64,000 bases of DNA, from the NCBI RefSeq assembly GCF_964204645.1, contig NC_134029.1:14936950-15000949 (forward strand), given 5' to 3'. The notes beneath the pieces are model-generated. The model was not told the DNA's origin. It searched no databases and was given only the letters and a program-made list of their open reading frames with translations. Source of the DNA: Tubulanus polymorphus. Taxonomy: Eukaryota; Animalia; Nemertea. This document shows, one piece after another, positions 14,228-32,658 of the stretch (position 1 is its first letter; the number at the start of each line of letters is the position of its first letter). The position numbers and the translations under genes were made by a program.

Positions 14228-14304
14228 TTTATTATTACAAATACAAATACACTATATTACAATATAATAACGTCGGGAGTCACACCGTTACACCACTCCT
14301 TCCT
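14228..14304 (-). mobile_element. Polypurine tract and start of the 3' LTR of the Gypsy-like element interrupted by the Polinton
   Basis: Minus strand AGGAAGGAGTGG immediately followed by TGTAAC (14292) and a downstream AATAAA; same orientation as the Gypsy fragments at 31225-32652. Confidence 0.5.
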
Positions 14305-14649
14305 AAAAATGTGTACTGAAACACGGTTTAGTACCAAAAATAACTTACGCAATATTATACGTCCAATACAATAACATTAAGTCCAACGCGCAGGGATCCA
14401 TCGCAAAACATAGTTCACAAGATATAGTTTACACATCTGTGAAATCCATTTTTGAAGCACAAGGTAGAGCATCTGGTGTTGGCCCTGCCATCCATATACC
14501 TACTCACATGTCGGGACTTGCGGTCTATATACAAATGATGGTCTATATACAAGTGGTAGCTGATGTTGTATGATGATTCCAGTAGCACTGAAAAAGTAAA
14601 AATAAAAGGCCGGCAGAAAAAGTTCAGAACCAGGACTGAGGCAGGGATG

Positions 14650-14770
14650 AGTAATTAGAAGATGGCGTTTTCATACCAGAGGACGAGAGGACGAGACACC
14701 ACTCATCACCACAAGTAATTTTTTTCCTAACACTCATCACCACAAGTAATTTTTTTTCCTAATAAATGGG
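14650..14770 (+). repeat. Left terminal inverted repeat
   Basis: Exact reverse complement of 31098-31218; contains GAGGACGA x2 and CACTCATCACCACAAGTAAT(n)CCTAA x2, and ends in TAAATGGG. Confidence 0.97.
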
Positions 14771-15836
14771 GGAGAATGAACACCAACTAGAAAACAATAA
14801 TATCAATAAAAATCAATATTATTGTCAATATTGTAAAAAATACATCGATACATCTAATAAAACACGACATGAAAAAACTGCAAATCATATAAAAAATGTA
14901 ATAGATTTTGAAACTCCAGAAAATTCCAATGAAAGAAAAGAACGATTAGAAAATATGAATGTGAATGAAATAAAATGTGAAGTTTGTGATGAATTTATAA
15001 CAAAAAGGAATTATAATAGACATCTCGAAACAGAAAAACACCATCAAAATTTGAGAAATAATGTTTTAGGAATAGATTATTTTGATGATAAACCTCAACA
15101 AGTAAAAGAATCAACTTCAAAAACTAAATCCATTTCAAATAAACCTTACATGGAAAATGTTAGAAATTATATTGATTCACTAGAAATAAAAGATACAATT
15201 GAAATCTTAGAAACATTACATAGTAAAATTGGTCCTGCAGCTATTATATTTAGATTTTTTAAAGGTACAACAATAGAAGATTATAGTAAATTTAATGAAA
15301 TAATAGAAAAAATACTAGATTTGATAACAGATGTTGAATATCCAAAAATTAGTATCTCTGGGAAAGTAAGTTTTATAAAGTCAGAAGAAAAATGGATTAT
15401 AATATTCAAACACACTCTGAAGAAATAATTTCAAAAACACAAATAAAAGAGAAGTTAGAAAAAATATTAAATGAATTTAAACGTCATATTGAAGAAAGAT
15501 ATTTTGAGGGTTCTGGCTTAACATTGAATGAAATTATATATTTAGATTTAAATGTTTATAATACAAAAAGGAATAAAACATCAAAAAGTAATAAAATGTT
15601 TAAAAATGATTCAAACTTTACAACAGAAAAAGGATATGAAAGCATCAAGTTATATCAAATTACCGTTTACAACAAAAGCAGTAATAAATATTCAAAATGA
15701 AGATAATAAATGTTTTCTATGGTCAATTATTAGTTGTTTACACCAAACAGAAGATATGACGCATAGTTTTACAATAACAAATTACCGGAAATATGAAACA
15801 TTATATAAAATTGATCAATATCCAGTAACTATATAA
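14766..15836 (+). pseudogene. N-terminal part of pPolB (two C2H2/U1-type zinc fingers, terminal-protein region, start of vOTU-like domain), broken by two frameshifts and a stop
   Basis: Fragments 14766-15428, 15392-15700 and 15552-15836 join into the usual Polinton PolB N-terminus (GSGLTLNEIIYLDLNVY...SSYIKLP...KAVINIQNEDNKCFLWS); indels lie in A-runs at ~15390 and ~15630; TAA at 15834 is in frame with 15837. Confidence 0.8.
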
Positions 15837-18800
15837 ATGATTCCTAAAATAGAAAAAATTAATAATTTAAAAATAAATGTATTCGAATTAATGCAATTAC
15901 CAAAGACAAAAGGTGAAAATATTAAAGATTATACATTGGAAGCTTTATATTTAACAGAATATTATGATGATGAAAATGCTATAGATTTGTTATATTACAA
16001 AAAAGATGAAAATGAACATTATATGTGGTTAAAACAAATTGATTTATTCTTTAGAACAGAAAGTGATTTTAACAGCCATAAAATTTATCTATGTAGAAAA
16101 TGTTTATCTAAATTTAGAACTGAGAATACATTATTAAAACATAAAGAATTATGTGATAATAAAGATTTTTGTAAATTAATAATGCCAACAGAAAAAGATT
16201 ATAAATTGAAATTTACTAATCATAAATTTAAGAATATTGTTCCATTTGTAATTTATGGGGATTTTGAATCGTTGAATAAAGAATTAACCGATCAAGATAG
16301 AAAAGAAATATATAACAAAAAGCAATTATTAAAATCAATGGATAAAGGAAATGAATTAAATGAAGATATAATTCAAGATCCACCAATTATAAATACAATT
16401 AAAAAAGTTCATCAAAGAGCTGCTGCTTATGGAATTTACATCAAATCAAATTATCCCGAATTATATGAAAGTCAATATATTTCTTTTAGAGGTGAAAATG
16501 TAGTTAATGATTTTTGTGATAAAATGATTGAATTAGAAAGTGATTTTACAAAATTATTAAACAAAAATAAAAGAATAGTTATGACAAAAGAAGATGAAAT
16601 TGATTTTAATTATGCAACTCATTGTTGTTATTGTGAAAAACGTTTTTATTCATTTGATAAAAAAGTTAGAGATCATGATCATTTAAATTCAAAATATCGT
16701 GGAGCTGCTCATGAAGATTGCAATTTACAAGCTAAAAAAGTAAATTTCGTACCAATATTATTTCATAATTTATCAGGATATGATACCCATCTATTTATAA
16801 AACAATTATCAGGAAAATTGGGCGCAATTAATCAAGAAATAGAAGAATATAATGCTATGAATGAAGCAAATGTAAGAAAATATGATTTTAAACTATTAGC
16901 TAAAACATCTGAAAATTATATTTCATTTCAATTTGGTTGCATTAGATTTTTTTCAGATTCTTATAGATTTCTAGCAAGTTCATTAGATAATTTATCAAAA
17001 AGTTTAGTTGATAATGATTTTGTTATAACTCGATATTATTATCCAAATGAACAAGATTTTAAATTATTGAGATATAAAGGCGCAATTCCTTATTCATTTT
17101 ATAAAACACATAATGATTTTAATGTAACAGAATTATTAAAAGATCAATTTTATGATCAATTAAAAGAGGAGTATGTGAAAGACGAAGTGTTTAATAGAAC
17201 ATTAAATATTTGGAACCATTTTAAGATGAAAAATCATGGCGAATTAGTTGATTTATATTTAAAATCAGATGTTATGATATTGGCTGACATATTTGAAAAA
17301 TTTAGAGAAGTTAATTTGAATCATTTTAATGTTGATCCTTGTTATTGTTATTCAAGTCCTGGTTTAACCTGGCAATGTGGTTTAAAATATACAAATGTAG
17401 AATTAGATTTATTAAAAGAACCAGATATGGTTTTATTATTTGAAAAATCAATTAGAGGTGGAATAAGTGGTGTTATGGGAGATAGGTATTTTAAAGCAAA
17501 TGATGAATATAAATTATTATATATTGACGCCAATAATTTATATGGTTGGGCAATGATGCAACCTCAACCATATAAAAATTTTATATTAACAGAAGTTGAA
17601 AATGGTGATAAAACTGATTGGGAAAGCGCAATTATTAGTTTAAAAGATGAAGCACCAATTGGTTATTTCTTTGTAGTTGATTTAGAATATCCTGAAAATA
17701 TAAAGTTTAAAACAAGAAACTTACCTTATTGCCCAGAACATTTAACTGTAGATGATAGTTATTTAAGTGAATACCAGAAGAAAATAAAACCGAAAGATCA
17801 TGTTTTTACAGAAAAATTAATACTTACTCAAAATAATAAATACAATTATATTGTTCATTATAGAATGTTAAAATTTTATCTAAAACAAGGAATGAAATTA
17901 AAGAAAGTACATAGATATATTGAATTTAATCAATCGAAGTGGTTAGAAAAATATATAGATTTCAATACTCAACAGAGAACCATATCAAAAACAGATTTTG
18001 AAAAAGATTTCTTTAAATTAATGAATAATAGTTTTTATGGTAAAACATGTGAAAATATTAGAAATAGAAATGATATTGAATTAGTGAATAATTCTGAAAG
18101 ATTAAGACATTTACAATCAAGTCCTAGACATTTAGGAAATAAAAGATTTGAAGATTATTTAACAGCAGTAAAATTAAAAAGAACGTCCATGAAATTTAAT
18201 AAACCAATATTTATAGGTTCAACCGTTTTAGAAATTTCAAAGCTATTGATGTATAATTTTTATTACAATGTTTTACAACCATTGTTTGGGGAAAAACATA
18301 TAGAAATTCTGTACTTCGATTCTGTAACGGCCGACACCCCAATATTATTAAAATGTAATAATAAAATATTGGTAAGAAGAATTTCAGAAATAATTCCAAA
18401 ACAAAATGAATGTTATATTTCATATGGTGAAAAAGAACTAATACAAATAAATGGATTAATGGATGTTTGGACAAGAAATGGATGGAAAAAATTAAAGAAT
18501 ATTATTAGGCATAAAACAAATAAGAAAATCTATAGAGTTAGAACTAAATTAGGATTCGTAGATGTTACTGAAGACCATAGTTTAATTAAACGAAATGGTG
18601 ATGAAATAAAACCAACTGATATAAAAATTGGAGATGAATTATTACATAAAAGATTTTTCCAAAGAATGAATCATATGTCATTTGATGAAATAATTGATAA
18701 TATTTATAATATAGAACCCGAAACATTAGAAGAAAAAGAATATTTTATCAAAGGATTTTTCATGGGTGATGGTTCAGCAGGTGTGTATAAATATGTTTGG

Positions 18801-19841
18801 GGTAATAAATATTGTTGGTATTTATGCAATCAAGACTTGAAATTATTAGAAAGAATTAAGAAATTCTGTGAAGAAGTTTATTCACATAAAACATTTAGAA
18901 TCATGGATGTTATGAAATCATCAGCAGTTTATAGAATACTTGTAAATAATCCTAAAGATTTTGCTATAGAATATAATGATGAATTCTATATTCATGCAAT
19001 AGTGAAAAGTAATACTTCAACTAAAGAAAAAATAGTACCAGATTATATATTAAATTCAGAATATAATCTTAGAAAATGGTTCTTCATTGGGTTCTACGCA
19101 GCCGATGGTACTAAAAAATTTATAAAGGATAAAACGATAACCTTTGCACAGAAAGGAAAATGTGCAATAAGTGGGTTAAATGTGTTATGCAGTTCATTAG
19201 GATTTAATATGAATATAGAATTAATTAAATCTAAACCAAATTGTTTTAATTTAAGGCATGTAGAAAAAGAATTAACAGAAGAAGTTAAAGATTTATTTGA
19301 AATATATAACCCAACTGACTATGTTTATGATTTATCAACAGATGATGGAAAATTCAATTCTGGGTTCCCATTAATCAAAAAAAATACGGATGCGTACATA
19401 CTAAAAATCAAGACAAATGACATAACAAAAGACTTAAAAACATTAAAACATCATTTTGATTTTAGCAATTATCCTAAAGATCATGAATTATTTAGCAATG
19501 ATAATAAAAAGATTCCTGGTAAATTTAAAGATGAATTAGGAGGTGATGAAATGATTGAATTTGTTGGGATAAGAAGTAAAATGTATAGTTACAGAACAAA
19601 AGATCATGAAGCTAAAAAGTTAAAAGGAATAACAAAACATGTGGTTGATAAACATATAGAATTTCAAGATTATATAAAGTGTTTATATAAATCAATTGTA
19701 ATGAAACACAAGATGAATTGTTTAAGATCAGAAGATCATGAGATGTATATTAATGAAGTTGAAAAAACTAGTTTAAATCCATTTGATGATAAAAGGCATA
19801 TTTCAGATGATGGTATAAAAACGTTACCTTATGGTTATTAA
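15837..19841 (+). CDS. polB: Protein-primed family B DNA polymerase (pPolB) with an EndoVII/HNH-like insert and an intein
   Basis: ExoI YGDFES, ExoII FHNLSGYD, ExoIII YLKSDV; CxxC...VRDHDH...YRGAAH..CN; motif A YIDANNLYGWAM, motif B KLMNNSFYGK, motif C YFD|TDA split by the intein, KMYSY, KLKGI. Confidence 0.96.
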   Translation: MIPKIEKINNLKINVFELMQLPKTKGENIKDYTLEALYLTEYYDDENAIDLLYYKKDENEHYMWLKQIDLFFRTESDFNSHKIYLCRKCLSKFRTENTLLKHKELCDNKDFCKLIMPTEKDYKLKFTNHKFKNIVPFVIYGDFESLNKELTDQDRKEIYNKKQLLKSMDKGNELNEDIIQDPPIINTIKKVHQRAAAYGIYIKSNYPELYESQYISFRGENVVNDFCDKMIELESDFTKLLNKNKRIVMTKEDEIDFNYATHCCYCEKRFYSFDKKVRDHDHLNSKYRGAAHEDCNLQAKKVNFVPILFHNLSGYDTHLFIKQLSGKLGAINQEIEEYNAMNEANVRKYDFKLLAKTSENYISFQFGCIRFFSDSYRFLASSLDNLSKSLVDNDFVITRYYYPNEQDFKLLRYKGAIPYSFYKTHNDFNVTELLKDQFYDQLKEEYVKDEVFNRTLNIWNHFKMKNHGELVDLYLKSDVMILADIFEKFREVNLNHFNVDPCYCYSSPGLTWQCGLKYTNVELDLLKEPDMVLLFEKSIRGGISGVMGDRYFKANDEYKLLYIDANNLYGWAMMQPQPYKNFILTEVENGDKTDWESAIISLKDEAPIGYFFVVDLEYPENIKFKTRNLPYCPEHLTVDDSYLSEYQKKIKPKDHVFTEKLILTQNNKYNYIVHYRMLKFYLKQGMKLKKVHRYIEFNQSKWLEKYIDFNTQQRTISKTDFEKDFFKLMNNSFYGKTCENIRNRNDIELVNNSERLRHLQSSPRHLGNKRFEDYLTAVKLKRTSMKFNKPIFIGSTVLEISKLLMYNFYYNVLQPLFGEKHIEILYFDSVTADTPILLKCNNKILVRRISEIIPKQNECYISYGEKELIQINGLMDVWTRNGWKKLKNIIRHKTNKKIYRVRTKLGFVDVTEDHSLIKRNGDEIKPTDIKIGDELLHKRFFQRMNHMSFDEIIDNIYNIEPETLEEKEYFIKGFFMGDGSAGVYKYVWGNKYCWYLCNQDLKLLERIKKFCEEVYSHKTFRIMDVMKSSAVYRILVNNPKDFAIEYNDEFYIHAIVKSNTSTKEKIVPDYILNSEYNLRKWFFIGFYAADGTKKFIKDKTITFAQKGKCAISGLNVLCSSLGFNMNIELIKSKPNCFNLRHVEKELTEEVKDLFEIYNPTDYVYDLSTDDGKFNSGFPLIKKNTDAYILKIKTNDITKDLKTLKHHFDFSNYPKDHELFSNDNKKIPGKFKDELGGDEMIEFVGIRSKMYSYRTKDHEAKKLKGITKHVVDKHIEFQDYIKCLYKSIVMKHKMNCLRSEDHEMYINEVEKTSLNPFDDKRHISDDGIKTLPYGY
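18321..19385 (+). mobile_element. Intein (355 aa) with LAGLIDADG homing endonuclease, inserted in PolB motif C
   Basis: Block A SVTADTPILL, block B VDVTEDHSL, dodecapeptides YFIKGFFMGDGS and WFFIGFYAADGT, block F YVYDLST, C-terminal KKN followed by +1 Thr; removal restores YFDTD. Confidence 0.93.
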
Positions 19842-20608
19842 AATGGATCTATATCATCAAACTCGAAATCACTATTGGCTTCTTCATTTTCATTTAATTG
19901 TTCAGGTTCTTCTTCCATTCCATTTTTCTCATTTAAATAAAGTTCTATCTTGTTCCACATTTCATCTCGCTCTCTTTGTTTCTTTTTGTTTGTTAATTCA
20001 TCAAATGGAATTATAATATCTAGGTTTAAATAATTTACAATCTTATTTAAAAAGAATTCATAATTTATTGAATCTGTTATTCTATTTTCCAAATGATACA
20101 TTAATATTTGTTTAAATATTTTTTTTATATTTTCCATATCTTCTTCTGTTAATTTAGGTTTTTCATAATAATCGTTAAATAATAAATATAAATACATTTT
20201 CTTTTGTTTTGTGTTAAATGTTGGTGGAATAATTGTTTTTATAATATCTTTTTTAGTTATTTCACCATTTTTATTTTCTATTATTTTCATTTTTTCAAGC
20301 CATTGCATATATTCTGGTGTATGATCTTCCATGGAAAATATTTTAAAAATTTCATCAAGATAATTTAATTTTGGTTCTATGAGAAAATTTCTAGTTTTTT
20401 CTTCACCCCATAAATTCTTTTGCCATCCACATTCAACACAAAATAACACAGTACCTTCTTGCCTTAAGGTCGCATAACTACATTGTGGGCATTTTTGTTT
20501 ATAATTTCTTGGTAATAGATCTTCATTAAGCTCTTGGTATTTTCTTACGTTTTCTTTATGTTTTATTGTTCTATTATGTAGATTTGAATTACTTGTTGTA
20601 ATAATCAA
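19838..20608 (-). CDS. Poxvirus late transcription factor VLTF-3 (A2)-like protein
   Basis: N-terminal Zn ribbon CPQC-x13-CVEC, then RNFLIEPKLNYLDEIF and KLTEEDMENIKKIFKQIL...SINYEFFLNKI...QRERDEMWNKI, collinear with remembered VLTF-3 motifs (INYSFFLDKI; C-terminal W); ORF starts at TTG. Confidence 0.75.
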   Translation of the reverse strand: MIITTSNSNLHNRTIKHKENVRKYQELNEDLLPRNYKQKCPQCSYATLRQEGTVLFCVECGWQKNLWGEEKTRNFLIEPKLNYLDEIFKIFSMEDHTPEYMQWLEKMKIIENKNGEITKKDIIKTIIPPTFNTKQKKMYLYLLFNDYYEKPKLTEEDMENIKKIFKQILMYHLENRITDSINYEFFLNKIVNYLNLDIIIPFDELTNKKKQRERDEMWNKIELYLNEKNGMEEEPEQLNENEEANSDFEFDDIDPF

Positions 20609-20623
20609 TTTACAATATTTATA

Positions 20624-21136
20624 TTAATATGTTTTTCTTGTTAATTCATTATATTGTTTTTCTAACTTTTCAACTGTTTCTTTATTATCTGGTAACGTTT
20701 TCTCATATTTTATTTTTTCTAATAAATTATTTTTTCTTTCATTGAATTCAGTTTCAAATTTATTAGAAATTTTATCTATATGTGCTTTACGAAATTGATG
20801 ATTCTCCCAATCTTCTATATTTTCAGGGCTATATTTTACTTGACAAGGCTCACAGAAATGATCTTTTATATTATCCTTATCATAGAATAAGAAAGGTCTT
20901 TTCCAAATAACTTCAGGTTCAACTTCAGCAGAATTACTATCAACATTAGCCGTTGCGCTATTAATTCTACACTTCTCTGAATGTTTTTTAACATAATTTC
21001 TTGAGAATAATTTATTACAATTTGGACAGTTTATTTTAGGGGGTTTATAATTTTCATCATGTTTTTTCATATGTCGAGCCATATTACTTTTTCTTAGAAG
21101 TTCACCACAAATTTCGCATGCTATCTTCTCATCCAT
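20624..21136 (-). CDS. Zinc-finger protein (three C2H2/C2HC-type fingers)
   Basis: CEIC-x12-HMKKH, CPNC-x12-HSEKC, CEPC...HQFRKAH; TAAATG start. Confidence 0.8.
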   Translation of the reverse strand: MDEKIACEICGELLRKSNMARHMKKHDENYKPPKINCPNCNKLFSRNYVKKHSEKCRINSATANVDSNSAEVEPEVIWKRPFLFYDKDNIKDHFCEPCQVKYSPENIEDWENHQFRKAHIDKISNKFETEFNERKNNLLEKIKYEKTLPDNKETVEKLEKQYNELTRKTY

Positions 21137-21204
21137 TTATTAAGGAAAAATTTTATTAAAATTAATTTTTAGTGATGAGCGGTAATTTTTTTATGTTATA
21201 AATA

Positions 21205-21963
21205 ATGGTAGAATTAAAAGAATACAGAATATTTATTGATTCTAGAAAACTTACAAATTATAAATCTCATAATTTACTAGTACAATTAGATAGAGAATTC
21301 AAGAATTGTGTAGATTTAAAATTAGTTAATATAAGTTTATGTAATTCTTTTTATAATATATCGGATAAAAGTCTAGAACATTTAATTTTTTCAATCTTTT
21401 ACAAAAAAAGGAATAAATGGTTTTTTATATATTTAAAACCAGGATTATATAATTTAGATACATTAACACAAGAAATTAATAGAAAAGCTCGAGCTAAATT
21501 AGGAAGTGATTCCGGATTTAGTATTAGAATTTTAAAAAGTGCTAGTTCTAATAAAATAAAGATTAGGTTAGCTAATGACGAACAATTTAAATTTACAGTA
21601 AGAAAACCTTTAGCTAAACTGTTAGGAATTGTACCAGATACCGTTACAGCATACGCAGAAGGTAAATCAAACTTAATACCTTTTACACATTTTTATATTT
21701 ATTGCAATTTAATTGACCCAACAAAAACATTTGAAGCAACTAAAGATACAATTTGTAATTCTGGTTTATTAAATATTTTACCATTAAAAAATGTTAAAGA
21801 ATTTGGAACGCAAATAAATTATAATTTAACTGAATGTGATTTCAAACCTTGTATTCCACATTTCAATAATTTTAAATTAGAAATAAGAAATCATAATGGT
21901 TATTTAATTGATTTGAATAACTTTCCTGTGATATATGAATTAGTTATAAGATGTAAAGAGTAA
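21205..21963 (+). CDS. Minor capsid (penton, single jelly-roll) protein
   Basis: Polinton penton pattern: IFIDS...V.LDRE...NSFYNI...PGLYN...YIYCNLID...LEIRNHNGYLIDLNNFPVIYEL. Confidence 0.75.
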   Translation: MVELKEYRIFIDSRKLTNYKSHNLLVQLDREFKNCVDLKLVNISLCNSFYNISDKSLEHLIFSIFYKKRNKWFFIYLKPGLYNLDTLTQEINRKARAKLGSDSGFSIRILKSASSNKIKIRLANDEQFKFTVRKPLAKLLGIVPDTVTAYAEGKSNLIPFTHFYIYCNLIDPTKTFEATKDTICNSGLLNILPLKNVKEFGTQINYNLTECDFKPCIPHFNNFKLEIRNHNGYLIDLNNFPVIYELVIRCKE

Positions 21964-21979
21964 TTTTTCACCTTTATAA

Positions 21980-22336
21980 ATGAATATAACTGTCGGACCG
22001 AGTATATGTTTTGGATTTGATTTTAAACGTGAGAAAGAAATGAAATTTAATATGAATGATGTAATAACACATATCAAAAATATTGCATTTTCTAATGAAA
22101 CAACATTTGAGTATGAAACAACAATTGATAAAGAAACTTTAAATGTAGAAAAGATTACTAATTTAATTAGAGAATCTTTAAGATTTTATGAATTAGATGA
22201 AGATTTTATCATCGATGATATTAAAAACATATTATCCAAAATATATGATAATCATAAAACTAGTAATAAAATAAATGTTGAAATAATCATAAATAAGTTA
22301 ACTAAATATTTTGATGATAGTAATTTTTTTGATTAA
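21980..22336 (+). CDS. Hypothetical Polinton protein (118 aa)
   Basis: Intact ORF with T-tract/TAAATG start in a tightly packed gene run. Confidence 0.65.
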   Translation: MNITVGPSICFGFDFKREKEMKFNMNDVITHIKNIAFSNETTFEYETTIDKETLNVEKITNLIRESLRFYELDEDFIIDDIKNILSKIYDNHKTSNKINVEIIINKLTKYFDDSNFFD

Positions 22337-22339
22337 TAA

Positions 22340-22561
22340 ATGAGTGATAATAAATGGATAATAACTGGATTATATAATGGCGCATTACTATCAGTTGGAA
22401 CGGTTGGTTATTCAATGGTATTAGAAAAAGTATTCAAAATGGGAAGTGTTAATGTTGATAGATTTGATATCAATGATATTTTGAAATTAACGTTAGCAGT
22501 TACTTTATCTAATTTAACTATTGATTATTTGGAAAAACAAAAATATATTCCTCCCATATAA
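22340..22561 (+). CDS. Small hydrophobic/membrane protein (73 aa)
   Basis: Two hydrophobic segments; TAAATG start. Confidence 0.7.
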   Translation: MSDNKWIITGLYNGALLSVGTVGYSMVLEKVFKMGSVNVDRFDINDILKLTLAVTLSNLTIDYLEKQKYIPPI

Positions 22562-22585
22562 ATGCATAATTTTTTTGTTAAATAA

Positions 22586-23008
22586 ATGGCTTCTGCAATT
22601 ATAACTATTATAGGATCGGCAATTGTTAACGCTTTAGCATTTACAGGTGGCGGTTATTTATTTAAACATATTGATAAAAATAGTTCATTAGGAGAACAAA
22701 GAAGACATAACTTAGCGTTAGAGAAATATAATAAAGCTGCAGAAGAATATAGAGAAAAACGACAAAACTATATGGATTATATTAACAAAGAATTATATAA
22801 TCAGAAGATTTCACATAGAGATTTTCAATCAGTTGATGATGCAATGAGTTTATATAACGCGGTAACCAATAAAGAAAAATTACATCTATACAAACCTAAA
22901 TTATCAGATTATTATACCCCAAGTAAAGAACAACAGAAATATGAAATAATTTGGATTTTAGGTGGATCAGTTATTGTTATATTTGTTGCTTATAAATTTA
23001 CTAATTAG
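22586..23008 (+). CDS. Membrane protein with N- and C-terminal hydrophobic segments and a central coiled coil (140 aa)
   Basis: MASAIITIIGSAIVNALAFTGGGYLF ... IIWILGGSVIVIFVAY; TAAATG start. Confidence 0.75.
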   Translation: MASAIITIIGSAIVNALAFTGGGYLFKHIDKNSSLGEQRRHNLALEKYNKAAEEYREKRQNYMDYINKELYNQKISHRDFQSVDDAMSLYNAVTNKEKLHLYKPKLSDYYTPSKEQQKYEIIWILGGSVIVIFVAYKFTN

Positions 23009-23027
23009 TAATTTTTATTCTAAATAA

Positions 23028-23462
23028 ATGGAAGATAAAGTTGATAGTATTGATATTATTCCTCATGATATAAATAAAACTAAATTAAAAACATATTTAG
23101 AAAAACAAATATTAGAATTTGAAAGTGACTTAAAGATAAAAAAGAAAAAATATTTAAAAAGTAAAATTATATATTATTTGATTATAAGTGGTTCGGTTAC
23201 AATTAGTTCTGTAATAACATTTCTAGCAATATTCAGTCCATTAACACCTTTAGCTATATCAATTGGTGTATTAGGATTAAGTTCAAGTGTTTTAACTGGT
23301 ATAAGTTCAAAATTAAATATAAAAAGTAATAAAGAAAAAATTAAAACTAATATAAAAGAAATTAATAAATTAAAGAATACACTAGATTATATAATAAGTT
23401 TAAATGGTCATATAACAGTTGAAGAACAAGATAAATTATTAAAAGAATTAATAAATTATTAA
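23028..23462 (+). CDS. Two-TM membrane protein (144 aa)
   Basis: Hydrophobic hairpin IIYYLIISGSVTISSVITFLAIF / LAISIGVLGLSSSVLTGI flanked by Lys-rich helices. Confidence 0.7.
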   Translation: MEDKVDSIDIIPHDINKTKLKTYLEKQILEFESDLKIKKKKYLKSKIIYYLIISGSVTISSVITFLAIFSPLTPLAISIGVLGLSSSVLTGISSKLNIKSNKEKIKTNIKEINKLKNTLDYIISLNGHITVEEQDKLLKELINY

Positions 23463-23479
23463 TTTTTTTAATTATATAA

Positions 23480-24868
23480 ATGGTAGATAGTTTTCCAAAA
23501 GCTTTCCAATATAATAAATCAATTAAATATAATATTCCAACAATAGATTTTAATAAAGATATTACATATAGAAATGAAGTTTTAGATTCATTAACTAATT
23601 TAGAAATTCATGTTACTGAAACTAATAATTTTAATGCAAAGATGGAAAATATATTTCATGTATATTTGATTAATTTTAAAAAATTGAAAGATGAAAAACA
23701 ATGGTTATTAAAATCTAATATGAAGTATTGGCAGAATCAATTAAATTTTGCTGTTTATTGTGCAACAACAGGTTGTGGAATTAGTTGGAATGATCATTAG
23801 AATAATTCTAAATATAAATTAATTCAAAGTTTATTTAGATTTCATACATACTTTCAAATCAGAATAATATTAAATGAATTAGAGTGCGCTTTACCAGGAT
23901 CTAGGTATTTCAAAGAATTGGATAATAATATTAATTTATCAAAGTTTTATAAAATTTGTAATGAATTTAATATAGATATAAAAAGTTCTGATTTTAGAAC
24001 AAAAATTGGAACAATAAGATCACTTCCTTGCCCTAGAAAGATTGCAGAATATTGTGCACTTCCCATACCATCTAATAGTTTTTATAATATCTATAATAAT
24101 AAATTAGGTTATGGTAAAATAGAAACAAAAGATTTAGAAACATTAAATTTCAATAAATTACCAAAATTTTATGATCATTTAAAACAAGAAAACAATAATG
24201 GTTGGGTATATTTTATTTTAGAGAATAGTGAAGGTTTTACTAAATCAGGTATAGAAAGAATAAATCAATCTATTAGAACTTATTTAATTTGTATTCTAGG
24301 ATCACAAGTTGAAACAAGATCACCGATAATTGGAAATTTGAATACATCATTTGATACACAAAAACAATTTAAAGTTTTATTTGAAGATTCAATTCATAAT
24401 GATAAAAATAGATCGATTCCAGAAAACATTATAAGATATCAAAATTATTTAGATAAATCTCATGTAAGACTTAATTATTGTATAGGCCCTAATCTATTAA
24501 TTATTTCTAATGATTTAGTATTAAAGATGGGAAATATAATTGGTTATAATAATCTAATTAAAACTGCAACAATAAATAATTCATTTGGATTAAATGATAT
24601 AAATAAAAAGATTATTACTGCTCCAAAATTAATGGAAGGTGAAAAAAATAAAAAACATATTCAATCAACTGAAACTAAAACTAAGAATATTAAATTAAAT
24701 AATGATTCTAAAATAAAAGATTACAATACATCAGAAGATATAAAAACTGATAAAATTCAACATGATATAATTAAACTAAATGATGATAATAAATCCCATG
24801 AAAATACTAAATTAGCTATAACTTGTATAGGAATTGTAATCGGAGGAATATTATATTTTAAATTCTAA
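23480..24868 (+). pseudogene. Single ~462-codon gene with a C-terminal TM anchor, interrupted by one in-frame TAG (23798-23800)
   Basis: ORFs 23480-23800 and 23918-24868 share a frame and the sequence between them is open (NNSKYKLIQSLFRFHTYFQIRIILNELECALPG); only 23480 has a TAAATG start. Confidence 0.75.
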
Positions 24869-24885
24869 TTTTTTTTATTATGTAA

Positions 24886-26325
24886 ATGGATGTAGAAGGT
24901 GGAGAAGATTATGAAATGGAAGGCATGGGAAATAATAATGAAGGATATATTGATGATGAACCACAACCCGATTTTAATGAAACTAATATTGATAATGATG
25001 ATGAATCAGCATATAATTCTAATTTAACTACACCTCAATATATTGATAAAACACGTTCAAAGATAAGTATTGAAAATGAAGTACCAGAAATAACAGAAAA
25101 AGAATACAATTATAATGAAATTATTCATGAATTTAAACCAATATTAAAAAGATCTGGTTTCAATATAACAAATAAAGGTATGAATTATTTAGTAAAAGAT
25201 TTAAAATATTTAAATGGTGATTATAATTGGAAATTGAAAGGCGACTATTATTTTAAGATTTCAAATCTTAAAAGTAACGATAAAATAATAACACAATCAA
25301 CTTTTAATTTATTTAAACCAGATAGAATTAAGAAAATCATTGATGATGTTATAACTGATGTTACACAAGAAGAAAGAGATTATAATATAAAAGAATTTAA
25401 ACAAAGAAATGCTAAATTTTTTGAGATAATTAATGAAAATTTAAGACAAAAAAAAATTCCTAAAGAAGTTATTAATTCCAAAACTAGTAAACCTAATTCA
25501 AGCGAAGTTCAAACTGAAAAACTTTTACCAAATGGATTACTTGATGCAACAGATCAACAATTAGAAGATTTAAATATATTTTCTGATGAAGCAATTAGAG
25601 AAATTATTAGTATAAGAAATGAAGCTGATAAAATTGTACATAATAAAAGTATAAGAGATCAAAAAATTAGAACTTTAGAAAAAGAATTAACTGATAAATA
25701 TAAAGAAATAGAACAATTAAAGTCTGATTTAGATCATCAAGCAATTGATGAAATAGAATATAGGCAAAAAGAATTACGTTTAGAAAAAGAAAAAGATTAT
25801 TTAGAATATAACATAGAATTACAAAAAGAAGAAATTAAATCATTATTAAAATCATATGAATATAATATTGATAGATTAAAAGTTATTTTTAAAGATTTGT
25901 TGATTAAACCAAATTCTGAAATATCATTAAAAGACAGAATAAAGTTATTATTTAAATTAGAAGGAATAACAATTCTTTCAATTCTAACAGCTGTAACTAT
26001 GTTATTTACAACAATTGGTTTAGCAATATCAAATGCTTTGAAATCTACTCCTACTCCAAATAAACCAGATAAACCTCCAGGCAATAATTCTATACAAGAT
26101 AAAGTTAAAGATGGTTTAAAAAAATTAGCAAAATATTTATGGGAACTATCAAAGAAATCTGCTGCAGCATTGCCAGGAGTTATTGCTTCAATTGTTGGTT
26201 TTATATTGAAATCTGCTGGGAATATTCTTAACTTTGCTGCTGAACATATTATTTTATTTTTAATTACAGTTGTAAGTGCTATTATTTTTGGGTTAGTGAA
26301 TATGATATCAAAAAATATCAAGTAA
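24886..26325 (+). CDS. Coiled-coil protein with acidic N-terminus and C-terminal multi-pass hydrophobic region (479 aa)
   Basis: Long heptad-like region, then ITILSILTAVTMLFTTIGLAI, Pro-rich linker, ALPGVIASIVGFIL and IILFLITVVSAIIFGLV. Confidence 0.8.
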   Translation: MDVEGGEDYEMEGMGNNNEGYIDDEPQPDFNETNIDNDDESAYNSNLTTPQYIDKTRSKISIENEVPEITEKEYNYNEIIHEFKPILKRSGFNITNKGMNYLVKDLKYLNGDYNWKLKGDYYFKISNLKSNDKIITQSTFNLFKPDRIKKIIDDVITDVTQEERDYNIKEFKQRNAKFFEIINENLRQKKIPKEVINSKTSKPNSSEVQTEKLLPNGLLDATDQQLEDLNIFSDEAIREIISIRNEADKIVHNKSIRDQKIRTLEKELTDKYKEIEQLKSDLDHQAIDEIEYRQKELRLEKEKDYLEYNIELQKEEIKSLLKSYEYNIDRLKVIFKDLLIKPNSEISLKDRIKLLFKLEGITILSILTAVTMLFTTIGLAISNALKSTPTPNKPDKPPGNNSIQDKVKDGLKKLAKYLWELSKKSAAALPGVIASIVGFILKSAGNILNFAAEHIILFLITVVSAIIFGLVNMISKNIK

Positions 26326-26376
26326 ACCATGATATCAAAAAATATCAAGTAAACCATGATATCAAAAAATAAATAA
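26302..26376 (+). repeat. 27-bp tandem duplication (~2.6 copies) across a stop codon
   Basis: ATGATATCAAAAAATATCAAGTAAACC repeated. Confidence 0.9.
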
Positions 26377-26396
26377 TTAATTTTTTTGTTAAATAA

Positions 26397-27644
26397 ATGA
26401 GTGGGAGTTATATAAGTCCTTCGAAGAATCATAGAATATCTAATGCTATTAAAGCAGAAAGATCACATCATATAATTACTCATAACCCTTCAAATATTAA
26501 TCCCGATGAAACTTTATACGTTAGAATCCCTCGATTAACACAAAATACTTTTTATGTTCCAAATAGTATTTATTTATCAGCCGATATAAAAGTAACTGGC
26601 CATGATAACAATTATGTTGTTGATAATGTTGGAAGATATTTGATTAAAAAATTAACTATAAAGATTGGTCCGGAAACAGTTTTCTCATTAGATGATTATA
26701 ATTTATTTATGCATTATAAAGATTTATGGTTAACTAAAGAAAATAGAAATAATATGATATTTCAAGGCATCCAATCGGAAAACCATAATAAATTAAGATC
26801 TGAAGCCAATAATGCAGTAGTAACTCGTGCCACAGATAATTTGATTAAAAAGATTTATGGAAGCAAATATAAAATTCCATTAGACTTTGAATTGATAAAT
26901 AATAATGCACCTTTATATAAATACGCAATTCAAGAAGATATTATATTTGAGATAACATTTGCTCCTGTAAATGAAATTGTATTATCTAGCGTTGTTAAAG
27001 ATATGGGTTATAAATTATCGAATATATGTTTAGAATATAACACAGTAACTAATGAAAATATTGCTAGCACAATTCAAACTCAATACAATCAAGGATTTTC
27101 ATTATTATATGATTATATTGATAAATTTAAAACTGTAACTATTAATGCAAATGATGAAATAATTAATGAGAATATTAACTTTCCTAGAAGATCTATTAAA
27201 GGTATATTAATATTTTTTACTATTGCAACATACTCTAATGGTGCAATAAATGTTGATAATTATTATAATCCTGAAATAACAAAAGTAGAAATAACTATCG
27301 AAGGAATAGCGAATAAAATATTTTGTCAAGGAATGAGAATGATTGATCAATGGCCAGAAATTAGAAAACATTTTATGAATGAAAAAGTAAAATCATCTGA
27401 AAATTGTAATATTAATCAAATTGATTATTATACCGGTAATAAATATGCATTATGGTTAGATTTTAGAACAACAGAGGATAATTTATTACATGGTTCTGGA
27501 AAAAAACTACAGAACACTAAAGATGGAATACAATTATTCATGAAAAAGAATAAAGGAATCAAAAATTTTAAAATGCACATTTATATTATATCTGACGCAC
27601 AATTAAATATTGTAAATTCACAATTAGATAGTATTCAATATTAG
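26397..27644 (+). CDS. Major capsid protein (double jelly-roll), 415 aa
   Basis: Size, beta-rich pattern, position next to integrase, motifs ITHNPS.I.P...LYVRIP.L and YALWLDFRTTEDNLLHGSG typical of invertebrate Polinton MCPs. Confidence 0.75.
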   Translation: MSGSYISPSKNHRISNAIKAERSHHIITHNPSNINPDETLYVRIPRLTQNTFYVPNSIYLSADIKVTGHDNNYVVDNVGRYLIKKLTIKIGPETVFSLDDYNLFMHYKDLWLTKENRNNMIFQGIQSENHNKLRSEANNAVVTRATDNLIKKIYGSKYKIPLDFELINNNAPLYKYAIQEDIIFEITFAPVNEIVLSSVVKDMGYKLSNICLEYNTVTNENIASTIQTQYNQGFSLLYDYIDKFKTVTINANDEIINENINFPRRSIKGILIFFTIATYSNGAINVDNYYNPEITKVEITIEGIANKIFCQGMRMIDQWPEIRKHFMNEKVKSSENCNINQIDYYTGNKYALWLDFRTTEDNLLHGSGKKLQNTKDGIQLFMKKNKGIKNFKMHIYIISDAQLNIVNSQLDSIQY

Positions 27645-27674
27645 AAATATAAAGTTAAAATTAAGGATATATAA

Positions 27675-28802
27675 ATGAGTGGTAAAAAAACTCCTAATAC
27701 TAAAGAACAATATTTAAGAAATTTATATTACAACCCTGAGAGTTCGGTTGCTTATTCTTCTACTAAAAATATATGGCGTAAAGTAAAACAAGATAAATTA
27801 GATAAGATAATCCCACAAAATTTAGTTAAATATAAAGATATAAATGAATTTATGTTAGAACAACCAACATATACAACACATAAAAAAATTGTTAGAAAAT
27901 ATAAAACTCGTAAAACTATGGTAAGTTATGTAGATCAACAGTGGCAAGGAGATTTAATTGATATGAAAAATGTTAAGAAAGATAATGATGATTATTGGTG
28001 GTTATTGAATATAATTGATATTTTTAGTCGTTATGTATGGAGCTTCCCACTTTATAGAAAAGATGCTGCACAAACATCACATGTTTTAAGAAAATTTCTT
28101 TCAGGTGGTAAACTAAAACCAGAAAAAATTCAATTTGATGATGGAAAAGAATTTGATAATTCATTAGTTCATGGACTTTTAGATTTTCATAATATTAAAT
28201 ATTTTTCGACAAAATCGGATAAAAAAGCAGCAGTTGTTGAACGATTTAATAGAACATTGAGAACAAGAATGTCAAAATATTTCACAGCAAATAATACTTA
28301 TAAATGGATTGATGTTTTACCAAAATTGATAGAAGGATATAATAATTCTTATCATTCTTCTATTGGAATGAAACCTATTGATGCTAGAAAACCTGAAAAT
28401 GCTGAAATTGTTTGGAATAATTTATATGGAGCATTTCTTGTTGATGATTTTGGTGAACCTAAATTTAAAGTTGGTCAAAATGTTAGAATTTCTAAGTATA
28501 AAAAGATATTTGACAAAGGATACGATCGAAATTTTACTAGAGAAATATACAAAATAAAAAAGGTAATAACAACAAAACCATATGTCTATAAATTAGAAGA
28601 TTTAGATGGTGAAGAAGTTGATGGCTACTTTTACGAAGAAGAATTAAGTTTAACTACTGAAAATCTAGAACAAGAATATAAAATTGAAAAAGTACTAAAA
28701 ACAAAAACTGTTAAAAGAAAAAAATATTCTTTAGTAAAATGGGTTGGATGGCCAGATAAATTCAATGAATGGATATTATCAAGTAAAATTAAAAATATAT
28801 AA
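27675..28802 (+). CDS. int: Retroviral-like (rve) DDE integrase with C-terminal chromodomain
   Basis: WQGDLIDM, IDIFSRY, QFDDGKEF, VVERFNRTLR; C-terminal YKIEKVL...LVKWVGWPDKFNEWI. Confidence 0.95.
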   Translation: MSGKKTPNTKEQYLRNLYYNPESSVAYSSTKNIWRKVKQDKLDKIIPQNLVKYKDINEFMLEQPTYTTHKKIVRKYKTRKTMVSYVDQQWQGDLIDMKNVKKDNDDYWWLLNIIDIFSRYVWSFPLYRKDAAQTSHVLRKFLSGGKLKPEKIQFDDGKEFDNSLVHGLLDFHNIKYFSTKSDKKAAVVERFNRTLRTRMSKYFTANNTYKWIDVLPKLIEGYNNSYHSSIGMKPIDARKPENAEIVWNNLYGAFLVDDFGEPKFKVGQNVRISKYKKIFDKGYDRNFTREIYKIKKVITTKPYVYKLEDLDGEEVDGYFYEEELSLTTENLEQEYKIEKVLKTKTVKRKKYSLVKWVGWPDKFNEWILSSKIKNI

Positions 28803-29411
28803 ATGAATAAGGAATTATTTATATTTGAGCCCCATAATATGTTAATTTCTGGTGTAACAAATTGTGGAAAAACTTATTTTATATTAAATTTATTAGAAAC
28901 TGTTTATGAAAACTATTTTGATAATATAGTATTATTTTGTCCAACATATGAATTTAATCAAACTTATGATAGAAATATTACTAGAAATAATAAATTTATT
29001 ATATTAGATCCTAAAACAGTAAAAGAAAATTTAGATAATTGTATAAAAATAGCAATTGATATTTATAAAGGATCTAATACATTATTTATTATTGATGATT
29101 GCGCAAATTTACATGATTCTAAAATTAGAGAAAGTGAGTTATGCTATTTAGCTTTCTCTGGGAGACATTTTGGGATAACAACTTGGGTTTTAAATCAAAA
29201 ATATAATTCAATTGTTAAAGACTTTAGAGAAAACATTAGATTTCTAGTTTTATTCTACAATAAAGATAGAAAATCGATGAAAAATGCACTTGAGGAAAAT
29301 GATATTATTCCACATGATTTACATAATGAATATATGGATAAGTTGAAAAATATTAAAAGATCAAAATTACTATTTAGATTACAACACCCATTTAAATATG
29401 AATTTATTTAA
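28803..29411 (+). CDS. A32/FtsK-like DNA packaging ATPase
   Basis: Walker A GVTNCGKT, Walker B LFIIDD, GRH...LNQ motif. Confidence 0.92.
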   Translation: MNKELFIFEPHNMLISGVTNCGKTYFILNLLETVYENYFDNIVLFCPTYEFNQTYDRNITRNNKFIILDPKTVKENLDNCIKIAIDIYKGSNTLFIIDDCANLHDSKIRESELCYLAFSGRHFGITTWVLNQKYNSIVKDFRENIRFLVLFYNKDRKSMKNALEENDIIPHDLHNEYMDKLKNIKRSKLLFRLQHPFKYEFI

Positions 29412-29690
29412 ATTCAACTAGCTTGTTAATCTAATTGAATTCTAGTTGAATTCTAGTTATTGGTAGTTGTAACAAAAATCAACTAGATTTAACAATATTT
29501 TAACTAGCTTGTCAATCTAGTCTAATTCTAGTTACATTCTAATTGAATTCTAGTTGTTAGTAGTTGAAACAAAAATCAACTAGATTTAACAAGAAATAAA
29601 CAAAAAACAACAATATTTCAACTAGCTTGTTAATCAATTTGAATTCTAGTTACATTCTAGTTACATTCTAGTTAAATTCTAGTTGCAACA
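29412..29690. repeat. Intergenic array of short direct and inverted CTAG-core repeats (AACTAG / TTCTAGTT)
   Basis: More than a dozen CTAG cores as caactag and ttctagtt in ~280 bp. Confidence 0.8.
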
Positions 29691-29718
29691 TCACACAATT
29701 AATTTTTTTGTTATATAA

Positions 29719-30324
29719 ATGGGAGGTGAAAAGAAAATAAAATCTAAAAATGGTGATGTTCCAATTGAAAAAACTTTAGATGATTTAGGAATAACAGAAA
29801 CAAAATTAACTCCAGATGATGGTGCTTTAAATATTGTTACAACAAATAATAATTATGAATATTATCTTTATTGTAAACATCAATTAGAAATATTAATAGC
29901 ATCTGGAAAATGTAAAAATTTTGTCGGTAAAAATTTAACTTATAATGAATTAGATACAATGAAATCAGTTGAAATTATTAGATTATTTAAGATTTATGAA
30001 GCCGCGAGAACAGCTAAAATCAATGACGCGATATCAGAAAATGTAGTAAAAGGTTATAGTAAATTATGTAATTATATACTACCAATTGAAGATGAAAATA
30101 GATTATATTCCGATTTAAAAAATGATTATTTAGTTATGACTGAATTAAATAAGTGGATTGGATATTTATCATTTCAATTAGGTGGATTTATGACATTATT
30201 ATCAACCGGGGTTATAACATTTTCAAATATTGAAAGTAAAAATATTTCTATAATAAATGAGCGAAGTGAAAGAAGTGAAGGAATTAACTGTGAAGAAAAA
30301 ACCGAGAACTCAGAAACAAATTAA
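29719..30324 (+). CDS. Conserved hypothetical Polinton protein (201 aa)
   Basis: TAAATG start; decayed homolog at 33406-33940; hydrophobic C-terminal segment. Confidence 0.8.
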   Translation: MGGEKKIKSKNGDVPIEKTLDDLGITETKLTPDDGALNIVTTNNNYEYYLYCKHQLEILIASGKCKNFVGKNLTYNELDTMKSVEIIRLFKIYEAARTAKINDAISENVVKGYSKLCNYILPIEDENRLYSDLKNDYLVMTELNKWIGYLSFQLGGFMTLLSTGVITFSNIESKNISIINERSERSEGINCEEKTENSETN

Positions 30325-30625
30325 ATGGTCTCGACAATTAGGAATTAAATCACAAGAATATAAAAAAGCTGTAAAAGAAAAAATAAGTAATAAAAATGTT
30401 AATAAAAATGGTGAAAATATTGTTATTTCTACTCCTTCTGATAGTAGAATATTTGATAAATATCTATATTTTACAGTTGGATTTGTAATTGTATTCATTT
30501 TGGTTGGGTGTAATTGGTATAAGAAATCAAATAAAATTCATGATAGTAATAATTCTGAAACAACTGCTATCAAAAATGAAAATACTTCTGAAATTCCAAA
30601 ATTGATAATAAAAAAAATGGATTAA
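30257..30625 (+). CDS. Basic single-TM protein (122 aa)
   Basis: KKPRTQKQIKWSRQLG, TM YLYFTVGFVIVFILVGC; decayed homolog near 33925-34260. Confidence 0.75.
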   Translation: MSEVKEVKELTVKKKPRTQKQIKWSRQLGIKSQEYKKAVKEKISNKNVNKNGENIVISTPSDSRIFDKYLYFTVGFVIVFILVGCNWYKKSNKIHDSNNSETTAIKNENTSEIPKLIIKKMD

Positions 30626-30669
30626 TATTTTAGAAAAAAGCAAAAAAATAATTTTTTTTAATTAATTGA

Positions 30670-30742
30670 ATATCTCACTACTTTTGTCTATCTATGTGGA
30701 GCAATTAAATTGTCCAGATAAGTCATTTCGGATTCTAGATAT
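30670..30742 (+). other. Conserved, putatively structured non-coding element of the Polinton
   Basis: Reverse-complement homolog at 33080-33154 in the second Polinton; nested stems retained. Confidence 0.65.
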
Positions 30743-30775
30743 TCATTATTTCTATTAATTTATTTTTTTAAAAAT

Positions 30776-31102
30776 TTAATTAACAATTTCTAAATCATGA
30801 TGACCGTCTTCATTTTTCCCATGATATATTATTTTAAATCCTACTAAATCTTTCAATTCCTCCGTACTCAATGAAACCCATTTATCGGGTAAAAACACTT
30901 TAAATTCTCGCGATGTACTAACATTACAGTAGCTTAAATTAGCTGATACTTTCTCTCCATATTTAGTTTTTATCTTTTCTAATTTCAATATTTTATGTTC
31001 AATTTCTTTTGTAACATCAACTAACTTTTTTATTTCAAATTGTTTTTTTGCTGGTTTTATTCTGTTATTTATTGTTGCTAAGAATGCTTTTCTATCTCCC
31101 AT
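30776..31102 (-). CDS. Small basic beta-rich protein (108 aa; TKYG...VFLP), possibly nucleic-acid binding
   Basis: ATG lies inside the right TIR behind the TAAATG motif; function is a guess. Confidence 0.65.
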   Translation of the reverse strand: MGDRKAFLATINNRIKPAKKQFEIKKLVDVTKEIEHKILKLEKIKTKYGEKVSANLSYCNVSTSREFKVFLPDKWVSLSTEELKDLVGFKIIYHGKNEDGHHDLEIVN

Positions 31103-31218
31103 TTATTAGGAAAAAAAATTACTTGTGGTGATGAGTGTTAGGAAAAAAATTACTTGTGGTGATGAGTGGTGTCTCGTCCTCTCGTCCTCTGGTATGAAAA
31201 CGCCATCTTCTAATTACT
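31098..31218 (-). repeat. Right terminal inverted repeat
   Basis: Exact reverse complement of 14650-14770, followed by TSD GGGATG. Confidence 0.97.
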
Positions 31219-31224
31219 GGGATG

Positions 31225-32652: not shown

Positions 32653-32658
32653 TTTTGT

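Follow-up and report, generated by a model that had tools for sequence, protein, structure and literature searches.

Polintons, or Mavericks, are described as elements with terminal inverted repeats (TIRs), target-site duplications (TSDs), a protein-primed DNA polymerase B (pPolB), a retroviral-type integrase, an A32-like ATPase and probable capsid genes (PMC8502044, PMC11131425), and an Ulp1/adenain-type cysteine protease is listed among their features (PMC11161782). Integrated or satellite elements whose genes carry the late promoter of a helper are represented by mavirus (10.1101/068312), Sputnik/Guarani (PMC6510173) and the pacmanvirus transpoviron (PMC11788076), for which protist hosts and mimivirus- or asfarvirus-type helpers have been shown by experiment; mavirus, with pPolB, integrase, TIRs and TSDs, is silent until its helper CroV (Cafeteria roenbergensis virus) arrives (10.1101/068312). 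Entomopoxvirus-associated Polinton-like viruses (PLVs), small genomes found physically in occlusion bodies, have been proposed as parasites of invertebrate poxviruses, and one relative is host-integrated (Barth et al. 2024, PMC11296320). Here, we analysed a 64,000-nt stretch of Tubulanus polymorphus DNA (GCF_964204645.1, contig NC_134029.1, 14,936,950 to 15,000,949, forward strand; hereafter the window), in which positions 14650-31218 are a Polinton-type element of 16,569 bp. Nearly all of its genes start at a motif of the poxvirus late-promoter type, and one of them is a homologue of the poxvirus late transcription factor VLTF-3.

The element is a Polinton/Maverick in the broad sense, as TIRs with a 6-bp TSD, pPolB, retroviral-type integrase and A32-like ATPase are all present. 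It differs from the Polintons described so far in the pox-late-type promoter at nearly all starts, the zinc-finger/VLTF-3 fusion and the intein in pPolB, and in that no Ulp1/adenain-type protease was detected; no cysteine protease family of this type matched in a Pfam scan of 20 open reading frame (ORF) pieces, several soluble ORFs being without family assignment. As compared with mavirus, Sputnik and the transpoviron, it has an animal host, a pox-type motif, a capsid without a virophage family match and a helper that we infer. There was no virophage-type capsid match (none of the Pfam matches of 49 aligned major capsid proteins was to a virophage capsid family), and the element, probably provirophage-like in its way of life, is not classed as a virophage. 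The entomopoxvirus-associated PLVs all encode a cysteine protease, and those with pPolB are without a detected integrase, whereas our element is known from sequence only and was compared with them by description (PMC11296320). Mriyaviruses are likewise small DNA viruses with VLTF3 and no RNA polymerase, but they lack PolB and possess VLTF2 together with an HUH endonuclease, and a nuclear location has been inferred for them; the available text says nothing of their promoters (PMC11253617). Poxvirus late transcription shares with the element TAAATG at the start, a T-peak about 10 nt upstream, and a zinc ribbon plus VLTF3 domain of equal span (vaccinia A2/VLTF-3, PMC11980589). In contrast to the poxvirus situation, the factor of the element follows several C2H2 fingers in a fusion protein, neither a polymerase nor a further late factor was detected, and the motif also heads replication genes, which are early genes in poxviruses.

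In vaccinia late promoters, TAAAT is followed by G and overlaps the start codon, and the tenth base upstream is a conserved T among other T's; intermediate promoters are without that T (PMC11980589). In the element, TAAATG was found at 14/15 gene starts, as compared with 37/632 other ATGs (Fisher p 8e-16), and when T-richness at -11 to -9 was included the counts became 14/15 and 9/632. The sole exception was the candidate minor capsid gene, which has TAAATAATG, and only one of the 14 TAAs doubles as the stop codon of an upstream gene, namely at the ATPase start abutting the integrase stop. T frequencies were 71, 77 and 85% at 11, 10 and 9 nt before TAAAT in 65 homology-anchored starts of the TAAAT group, and T at -10 reached 93% in the 14 starts of the window. 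By these sequence criteria, the start motif matches the vaccinia late promoter in both sequence and spacing. An earlier note on this DNA had claimed that the AT-rich genes almost all begin at a T-tract/TAAATG motif and had proposed a motif check upstream of the starts; the claim held, and the check gave the T-peak at 9-11 nt that fits the vaccinia promoter. Poxvirus late mRNAs carry 5' poly(A) heads and are initiated within TAAAT. T occupied -3 in 91% of the starts, opposite to the purine of the usual animal Kozak context, and is harmless there under a poly(A) head. Neither a baculovirus-type TAAG within 45 nt (2/15 starts) nor an upstream TATA box at Pol II distance (3/15) received support.

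To place the motif in a wider context, we scanned metagenomes with a capsid profile, which yielded 46 loci from 237 pattern matches. Only starts anchored by a match close to the N-terminus of a window protein were counted, of which 15 loci had none, and the capsid clade labels were assigned after the starts were seen, the quick tree itself not being built on starts. The 15 loci in the capsid clade of the window (support of 98 in the Shimodaira-Hasegawa-like approximate likelihood ratio test, SH-aLRT) showed TAAATG at 42/48 starts, or 38/43 without near-duplicates, and the loci of 36-44% GC at 7/8. TAAAT lay within 12 nt in 46 of these 48 starts, the exceptions to TAAATG having it slightly upstream of the usual place. 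Fourteen other metagenomic loci showed TAAATG at 0/31 starts, and the motif was absent from relatives of 29-31% GC. The start motif is shared across the lineage, does not depend on GC content and cannot be put down to stop-start overlap. For comparison, TAAATG was present at 12/31 ORFs of mixed class in two entomopox-type loci and at 4/90 starts in six giant-virus loci. Two loci with distant capsids outside the main clade (L024 and L025, 33-34% identity) had TAAATG at 3/3 anchored starts, so that the motif is either ancestral or arose twice. In L015, L016, L018-L020 and L027, TATA is found at most 12 nt from the ATG instead of TAAATG (12/15 starts in five non-redundant loci). This resembles the late motif of African swine fever virus (ASFV) and pacmanvirus, which is TATATA (PMC11788076), and is not diagnostic alone, because 30/65 starts of the TAAAT group contain TATA too. 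A further signal, the heptamer CTCATCA, occurs only at 14702, 14733, 21173, 31129 and 31160, ahead of three genes (those for pPolB, the 108-aa protein and the VLTF-3 fusion) whose upstream regions also share TTTTCCT(T)AATAAATG; the relative L001 has C-rich tracts ahead of two of these genes. It is possible that the heptamer represents a second promoter class.

The VLTF-3-like frame, placed by the earlier note at 19838-20608, proved to be the C-terminal part of a C2H2 zinc-finger/zinc-ribbon/VLTF-3 fusion on the minus strand (19838..21136) that starts at the TAAATG at 21136. Scanned directly against Pfam, the window protein had no VLTF3 match, and a word-index homologue search with the frame returned 0/284 candidates. 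In the ESM Atlas, Pox_VLTF3 clusters made up 29/30 matches at 0.90, with a recognition value below the reliable range. A phmmer search of 1.84 billion proteins with the VLTF-3 part gave four matches, comprising two zinc-finger fusions like that of the window, one protein without assignment and P0275. The last was the sole one in which Pfam recognised VLTF3 (Pox_VLTF3 E 1e-24, plus A2L_zn_ribbon); it is 63% identical to the VLTF-3 of L047, a locus of 232,392 bp and 17.7% GC with entomopoxvirus-type genes, and aligns with the window protein at 27% identity over 199 aa (E 9e-12). The window protein also has a four-cysteine zinc ribbon N-terminal to the VLTF3 domain, as in the poxvirus A2 family PF04947. 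A single-sequence fold was not used (predicted local distance difference test, pLDDT, 40). A fold from a nine-sequence alignment including two entomopox rows had a pLDDT of 72, and its Foldseek search against BFVD returned cowpox VLTF-3 first (E 5e-7), entomopox proteins third and seventh, Pandoravirus and mimivirus-type VLTF3s fifth, sixth and eighth, and ASFV B385R eighteenth. The gene of the window is, on this homology evidence, established as a VLTF-3 homologue, and late-factor activity is predicted for it. The earlier note was therefore right about the homology, by sequence and by structure, and wrong about the extent of the gene. It had also named the lack of any VLTF-3 match as an outcome that would speak against its reading, and the match that we found favours that reading.

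To assess the affinity of this factor, a profile was built from four Polinton-side sequences only. Its scores were 47.9, 37.7 and 22.5 bits for three entomopox VLTF-3s; for eight VLTF3s from giant-virus bins they did not exceed -5.5, and the 270 scored decoys reached at most 5.9. Single BLAST scores overlapped somewhat (L135, 32 bits; L049, 31.6). The spacing from ribbon to motif was 120-126 aa in 4/5 Polinton-side rows and 119-121 in two entomopox proteins, as compared with 133 in eight giant-virus proteins. Within this limited panel, the VLTF-3 of the element is likely to be of pox affinity. With VIA-align, the model gave middling cyclin/TFIIB/Rb matches (Z at most 6.4); that with human TFIIB (Z 6.3, root-mean-square deviation 4.3, 94 aligned) is within the range of common helical folds. 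A VLTF3-like ORF of L018 was considered as a counterpart and rejected, as the alignment was unconvincing (hhalign probability 2.4; 5.1 bits); a Bcl-2 gene is found at the same locus (E 2e-18).

In animals, transcripts made by Pol II in the nucleus are expected to be cut early at AATAAA. We counted 70 sense AATAAA in 14.5 kb of coding DNA of the element, where 67.3 were expected from synonymous shuffles. None of 19 ORF pieces was free of the signal, and the main pPolB frame had 13. Observed and expected numbers were similarly close in L001 (60 vs 59.1), L002+L005 (62 vs 61.4), as well as in the entomopox loci (180 vs 191). The undepleted AATAAA argues against nuclear Pol II expression. Depletion of TTTTTNT in coding strands (11 vs 19.4) was considered as a poxvirus terminator signal and rejected, as A-runs were depleted too (75 vs 105.9). 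In agreement with the earlier note, no RNA polymerase or capping enzyme family matched in Pfam (20 ORF pieces) or NCBIfam (16 of these). The accessory ORFs of relatives that were scanned likewise showed no poxvirus RNA polymerase subunit.

The pPolB carries an intein of 355 aa with a LAGLIDADG endonuclease domain (18321..19385, plus strand), inserted at the polymerase YxD|TD motif (YFD|SVT...KKN|TDA); it starts with Ser, ends with Asn and is followed by Thr, at the site used in viral PolB inteins. We cut 119 inteins from the 120 matches listed, and 106 of 300-430 aa together with that of the window entered a quick tree. Seven pPolB inteins formed one clade (SH-aLRT 99) beside those of RNA-primed polymerases (93). 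The pPolB inteins are those of P0131-P0134, P0139 and P0140 besides the window's, and one cluster has 136 members, those listed being on contigs of at most 1 Mb. Three of the 15 sister rows were examined, of which two were Pol-delta-like and one phage-like. Relatives of the Pol-delta-like intein carriers include many giant-virus bins, and no poxvirus polymerase was among the best 60 rows for the two Pol-delta-like sister carriers. The intein was accordingly rejected as evidence for a pox helper, the nearest non-Polinton carriers not being pox-like; judged from these sequences, it is a trace of ancient contact with large DNA viruses rather than with a poxvirus. The earlier note's description of it as an intein of the nucleocytoplasmic large DNA virus style is borne out as to the giant-virus family. 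A brief survey of the literature found no paper on inteins in Polinton pPolB.

The copy in the window is pseudogenized, with five coding breaks across three genes. The pPolB gene is in four pieces (14766-15428, 15392-15700, 15552-15836 and 15837-19841), all colinear with one intact relative, P0131, with frame changes near 15392-15428 and 15552-15700 and an in-frame stop at 15834-15836. In-frame stops also cut the gene at 23480-24868 (23798-23800) and the VLTF-3 fusion gene (20624-20626), the zinc-finger and VLTF-3 parts of which are held in one protein in P0272 and P0273. Because of these five breaks the copy is not functional on its own, and its movement is possible only with help in trans. 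The claim of a complete Polinton is correct for the ends, with TIRs identical over 121 nt and the TSD GGGATG, and fails for the coding sequence. Raw reads from X6, a genomic run of this organism of which about 12% was read, were mapped to 13500-30700 only, the right end being outside this range. Read depth was about 80-960-fold over the element and 40-90 in the left flank, which is itself repetitive; 567 reads ran from the left end into unlike sequence (agreement 0.38), and likeness of at least 99% was seen in only 2,791 of 60,083 reads. These data indicate a diverse, multi-copy family at many sites. Reads of a marine run, X5 (share 0.06), matched in short, scattered pieces only and were set aside as evidence on habitat.

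Taken together, the motif, its lineage-wide conservation, the pox-like VLTF-3, the AATAAA counts and the lack of a detected RNA polymerase or capping enzyme suggest that the element is a satellite, and with slightly better than even confidence we propose that the late machinery of a poxvirus, or of a close relative, transcribes its lineage, which would live in the manner of a provirophage. On infection by a helper, an intact copy would come out of the chromosome or be copied from it, and its DNA would reach the cytoplasmic factory, where the late machinery of the helper would read it. Initiation inside TAAAT would give poly(A)-headed mRNA, and the zinc-finger/VLTF-3 protein may steer the helper's machinery to the element's own promoters or compete with the helper's factor. 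The pPolB would replicate the linear genome, which would be packaged by the ATPase and the capsid proteins; the membrane proteins may supply a membrane or borrow one, and through the integrase copies would go back into the host genome. A wider claim, which we hold tentatively and regard as rather doubtful, is that a widespread lineage among animal Polintons consists of germline virophages of poxvirus-like viruses, wired to late promoters, with a captured VLTF-3 that hijacks the polymerase, a TAAAT/TATA switch accompanying pox- or asfar-like helpers, and a role as inherited antiviral parasites.

Three other explanations have to be weighed. It is very improbable that the motif is no promoter and a mere by-product of AT-rich, tightly packed genes, through stop-start overlap or translation-start context: the element is indeed 76% AT, the ATPase start abuts the integrase stop and several T-tracts directly follow an upstream stop, but 13 of the 14 TAAs are not upstream stops, the motif is found also at terminal and divergent genes without an upstream gene, it persists at 36-44% GC while absent in relatives of 29-31% GC, and starts lacking TAAATG have TAAAT a few bases upstream (46/48 within 12 nt). 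An autonomous nuclear virus is also unlikely in our judgement. In such a virus, host Pol II together with the element's own TFIIB-like zinc-finger/VLTF-3 protein would initiate at TAAAT, promoter and factor having been taken from a pox-like virus, and no helper would be needed today. VLTF3 without RNA polymerase is the rule in mriyaviruses, which are inferred to be nuclear (PMC11253617), and the weak cyclin/TFIIB-fold matches of the VLTF-3 model, the spread of the element to many chromosomal sites and the chromodomain of its integrase point the same way; the heptamer on pPolB, the 108-aa gene and the VLTF-3 fusion may mark a first wave of expression. Such a virus is difficult to reconcile with undepleted AATAAA in every gene, and an mRNA begun within TAAAT has no 5' leader, except where the polymerase stutters in the way of the poxvirus enzyme. 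Moreover, the VLTF-3 gene itself starts at TAAATG, and therefore something else must read that gene first. Vaccinia late transcription needs factors beyond VLTF-3, and further vaccinia late factors were not detected in the element; late factors A1 and A2 are named in the references of PMC11980589.

The remaining explanation keeps helper dependence and makes the helper a non-pox nucleocytovirus with a TAAAT late promoter, such as an egovirus-like or undescribed lineage. The intein occurs in giant-virus polymerases too, and late promoters are unknown for most nucleocytovirus lineages; the word 'promoter' does not occur in the available text of the egovirus preprint (10.1101/2024.03.23.586382). 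In addition, the TATA near ATG in other relatives resembles the ASFV/pacmanvirus late motif, and helpers may therefore have changed. We nevertheless consider a non-pox helper quite unlikely, since both the sequence and the spacing of the two-part motif fit vaccinia, the score of the VLTF-3 and the distance from its ribbon to the motif are pox-like, and the Polinton inteins form one clade (SH-aLRT 99), so that the intein may be an old acquisition.

Several observations weigh against dependence on a pox-like helper. No helper virus was found, nor was any RNA data set listed as containing the element, which has no bearing on its expression. The waking of a nuclear copy by a cytoplasmic polymerase is a weak point; the mavirus paper, in its available text, only hypothesises the entry of a viral late factor into the nucleus (10.1101/068312). 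Mriyaviruses, presumed to be nuclear and without an RNA polymerase, have a conserved VLTF3 (PMC11253617), and L018 has a weak VLTF3-like gene yet no TAAATG starts. Non-pox VLTF3s were interleaved in the Foldseek list, and the folded alignment held two entomopox sequences. A 17-row VLTF3 tree with long branches left the Polinton, pox and giant-virus groups unresolved, the panel was without asfarvirus, egovirus, iridovirus, medusavirus, mriyavirus and PLV sequences, and the Polinton and entomopox VLTF-3s both come from very AT-rich genomes. The sole nuclear control for AATAAA was too short (0 vs 1.4) and of low power. The nearest non-Polinton intein carriers are Pol-delta-like or phage-like, and the giant-virus loci related to intein carriers have TAAATG at 4/90 starts. 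The present copy is, as noted, a pseudogene, and the idea of PLVs as poxvirus hyperparasites has already been published for moths (PMC11296320). The provirophage-like reading of the earlier note therefore survives in its promoter and VLTF-3 components, and is weakened by the decayed copy, by an intein that does not support a pox helper, by VLTF3 in mriyaviruses and L018, and by the moth precedent.

The TIRs (14650..14773, plus strand, and 31095..31218, minus strand) extend to 124 nt if one mismatch is allowed, and are flanked by the TSDs (14644..14649 and 31219..31224), whose length of 6 bp is that of Polintons. The element is 23.6% GC, as compared with about 31-47% in 1-kb bins of the host flanks, and 94% of it is coding, with 15 genes after merging of split genes. 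The left TIR contains two 31-nt tandem units and the T-tract/TAAATG start of pPolB, and near the TIR end AAGATGGCG at 14658-14667 resembles what we take to be a YY1 site. Tandem duplications at 14700-14762 and 26302-26371 differ between copies; one 31-nt TIR unit is missing from 155 of the raw genomic reads, and 154 lack about 57 nt of a 27-nt array. Between the ATPase and the 201-aa gene lies a non-coding spacer (29412..29718) with direct and palindromic repeats (TTCTAGTT units), which may serve as an origin or for packaging; in L001 another repeat array occupies the equivalent position.

The plus strand begins with pPolB (14766..19841; Pfam DNA_pol_B_2 E 3e-18), which has N-terminal zinc fingers and an endonuclease-VII-like insert. 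A divergent promoter region (21137..21204), with T-tract/TAAAT on both strands and the CTCATCA heptamer, separates the VLTF-3 fusion from the following plus-strand genes. These encode a candidate minor capsid protein of 252 aa (21205..21963; weak DUF5901 E 0.0014; homologues in L001 and L018), a 118-aa ORF (21980..22336), a conserved 73-aa ORF (22340..22561; homologues in L001, L006, L007 and L018), a conserved 140-aa protein with two predicted transmembrane helices (22586..23008), a 144-aa protein also with two such helices (23028..23462), which is weakly SLATT-like below the cut-off (NCBIfam SLATT_4 E 5e-5), a conserved core gene with a C-terminal membrane anchor (23480..24868; one 442-aa ORF in L001), and a 479-aa coiled-coil protein with three predicted C-terminal transmembrane helices (24886..26325). 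With reference to the weakly SLATT-like protein, an antiviral role of the element is possible. Next come the probable major capsid protein of 415 aa (26397..27644; 765 homologues), the integrase with a C-terminal chromodomain (27675..28802; rve E 5e-9, over cut-off; Chromo E 2e-4), the A32-like packaging ATPase (28803..29411; Pox_A32 E 3e-13), a conserved 201-aa ORF (29719..30324) and a 122-aa protein with a single transmembrane helix (30257..30625). The minus-strand 108-aa ORF (30776..31102; L001 homologue 74% identical) uses the right TIR promoter. Transmembrane helices were predicted in five genes, in line with the several membrane proteins noted earlier. The capsid assignment is consistent with Capsid_N matches, below cut-off, in 19/49 aligned members (best E 6e-4), and a named distant homologue, P0097, comes from a clam (38% identity). 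No significant PDB match was found for the major capsid protein, the 442-aa core protein or VLTF-3, and neither IMG/VR nor the GTDB genomes contained a relative of the capsid protein, the VLTF-3 fusion or the core membrane protein. Accessory genes of relatives (L001:10340-10981, L007:2895-3377 and L002:5568-6083) include a deoxynucleoside kinase in two and a weak HNH nuclease in another.

Outside the element, a second, decayed relative of about 68% nt identity lies at 33390-35420, in which homologues of the genes for the 201-aa and 122-aa proteins, the integrase and the ATPase stand in a changed order; T-tract/TAAATG is still present at 33403, and TAAATG at the ATPase start at 35276. The window also contains remains of a decayed long-terminal-repeat retrotransposon integrase to the right of the element (31600-32750), a Penelope-like reverse transcriptase plus GIY-YIG element (56468-58901) and long T-rich repeat arrays (41000-47300 and 60900-62300), in keeping with an animal genome rich in repeats. 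An Rfam search of the window gave no match.

Parts of this picture have precedents. Polintoviruses with VLTF3 were reportedly noted by Krupovic and Koonin in 2016. VLTF3 has been reported in some coral polintoviruses (PMC11131425) and membrane-active accessory genes in adintoviruses (PMC8502044); the word 'promoter' is absent from the available text of both papers, and that of PMC11296320 contains no promoter, VLTF or intein analysis. A search of full-text literature, with supplements and many subscription papers outside its range, found no report of poxvirus-type late promoters in animal Polintons. What is new here is a motif that is lineage-wide, GC-independent and correctly spaced, together with the fusion of zinc fingers to a pox-like VLTF-3, the finding on AATAAA and the division into TAAAT and TATA lineages.

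How animal Polintons are expressed and whether they need a helper is a long-open question, free particles and helpers being unknown for almost all of them. The precise, lineage-wide match to a well-studied promoter makes the helper question testable. If the dependence on a pox-like helper proposed here is true, the provirophage strategy of the mavirus type would extend from protists to animal germlines, the type of helper would be readable from the start motif of an element, and pox-like viruses would be predicted in hosts that have none on record.

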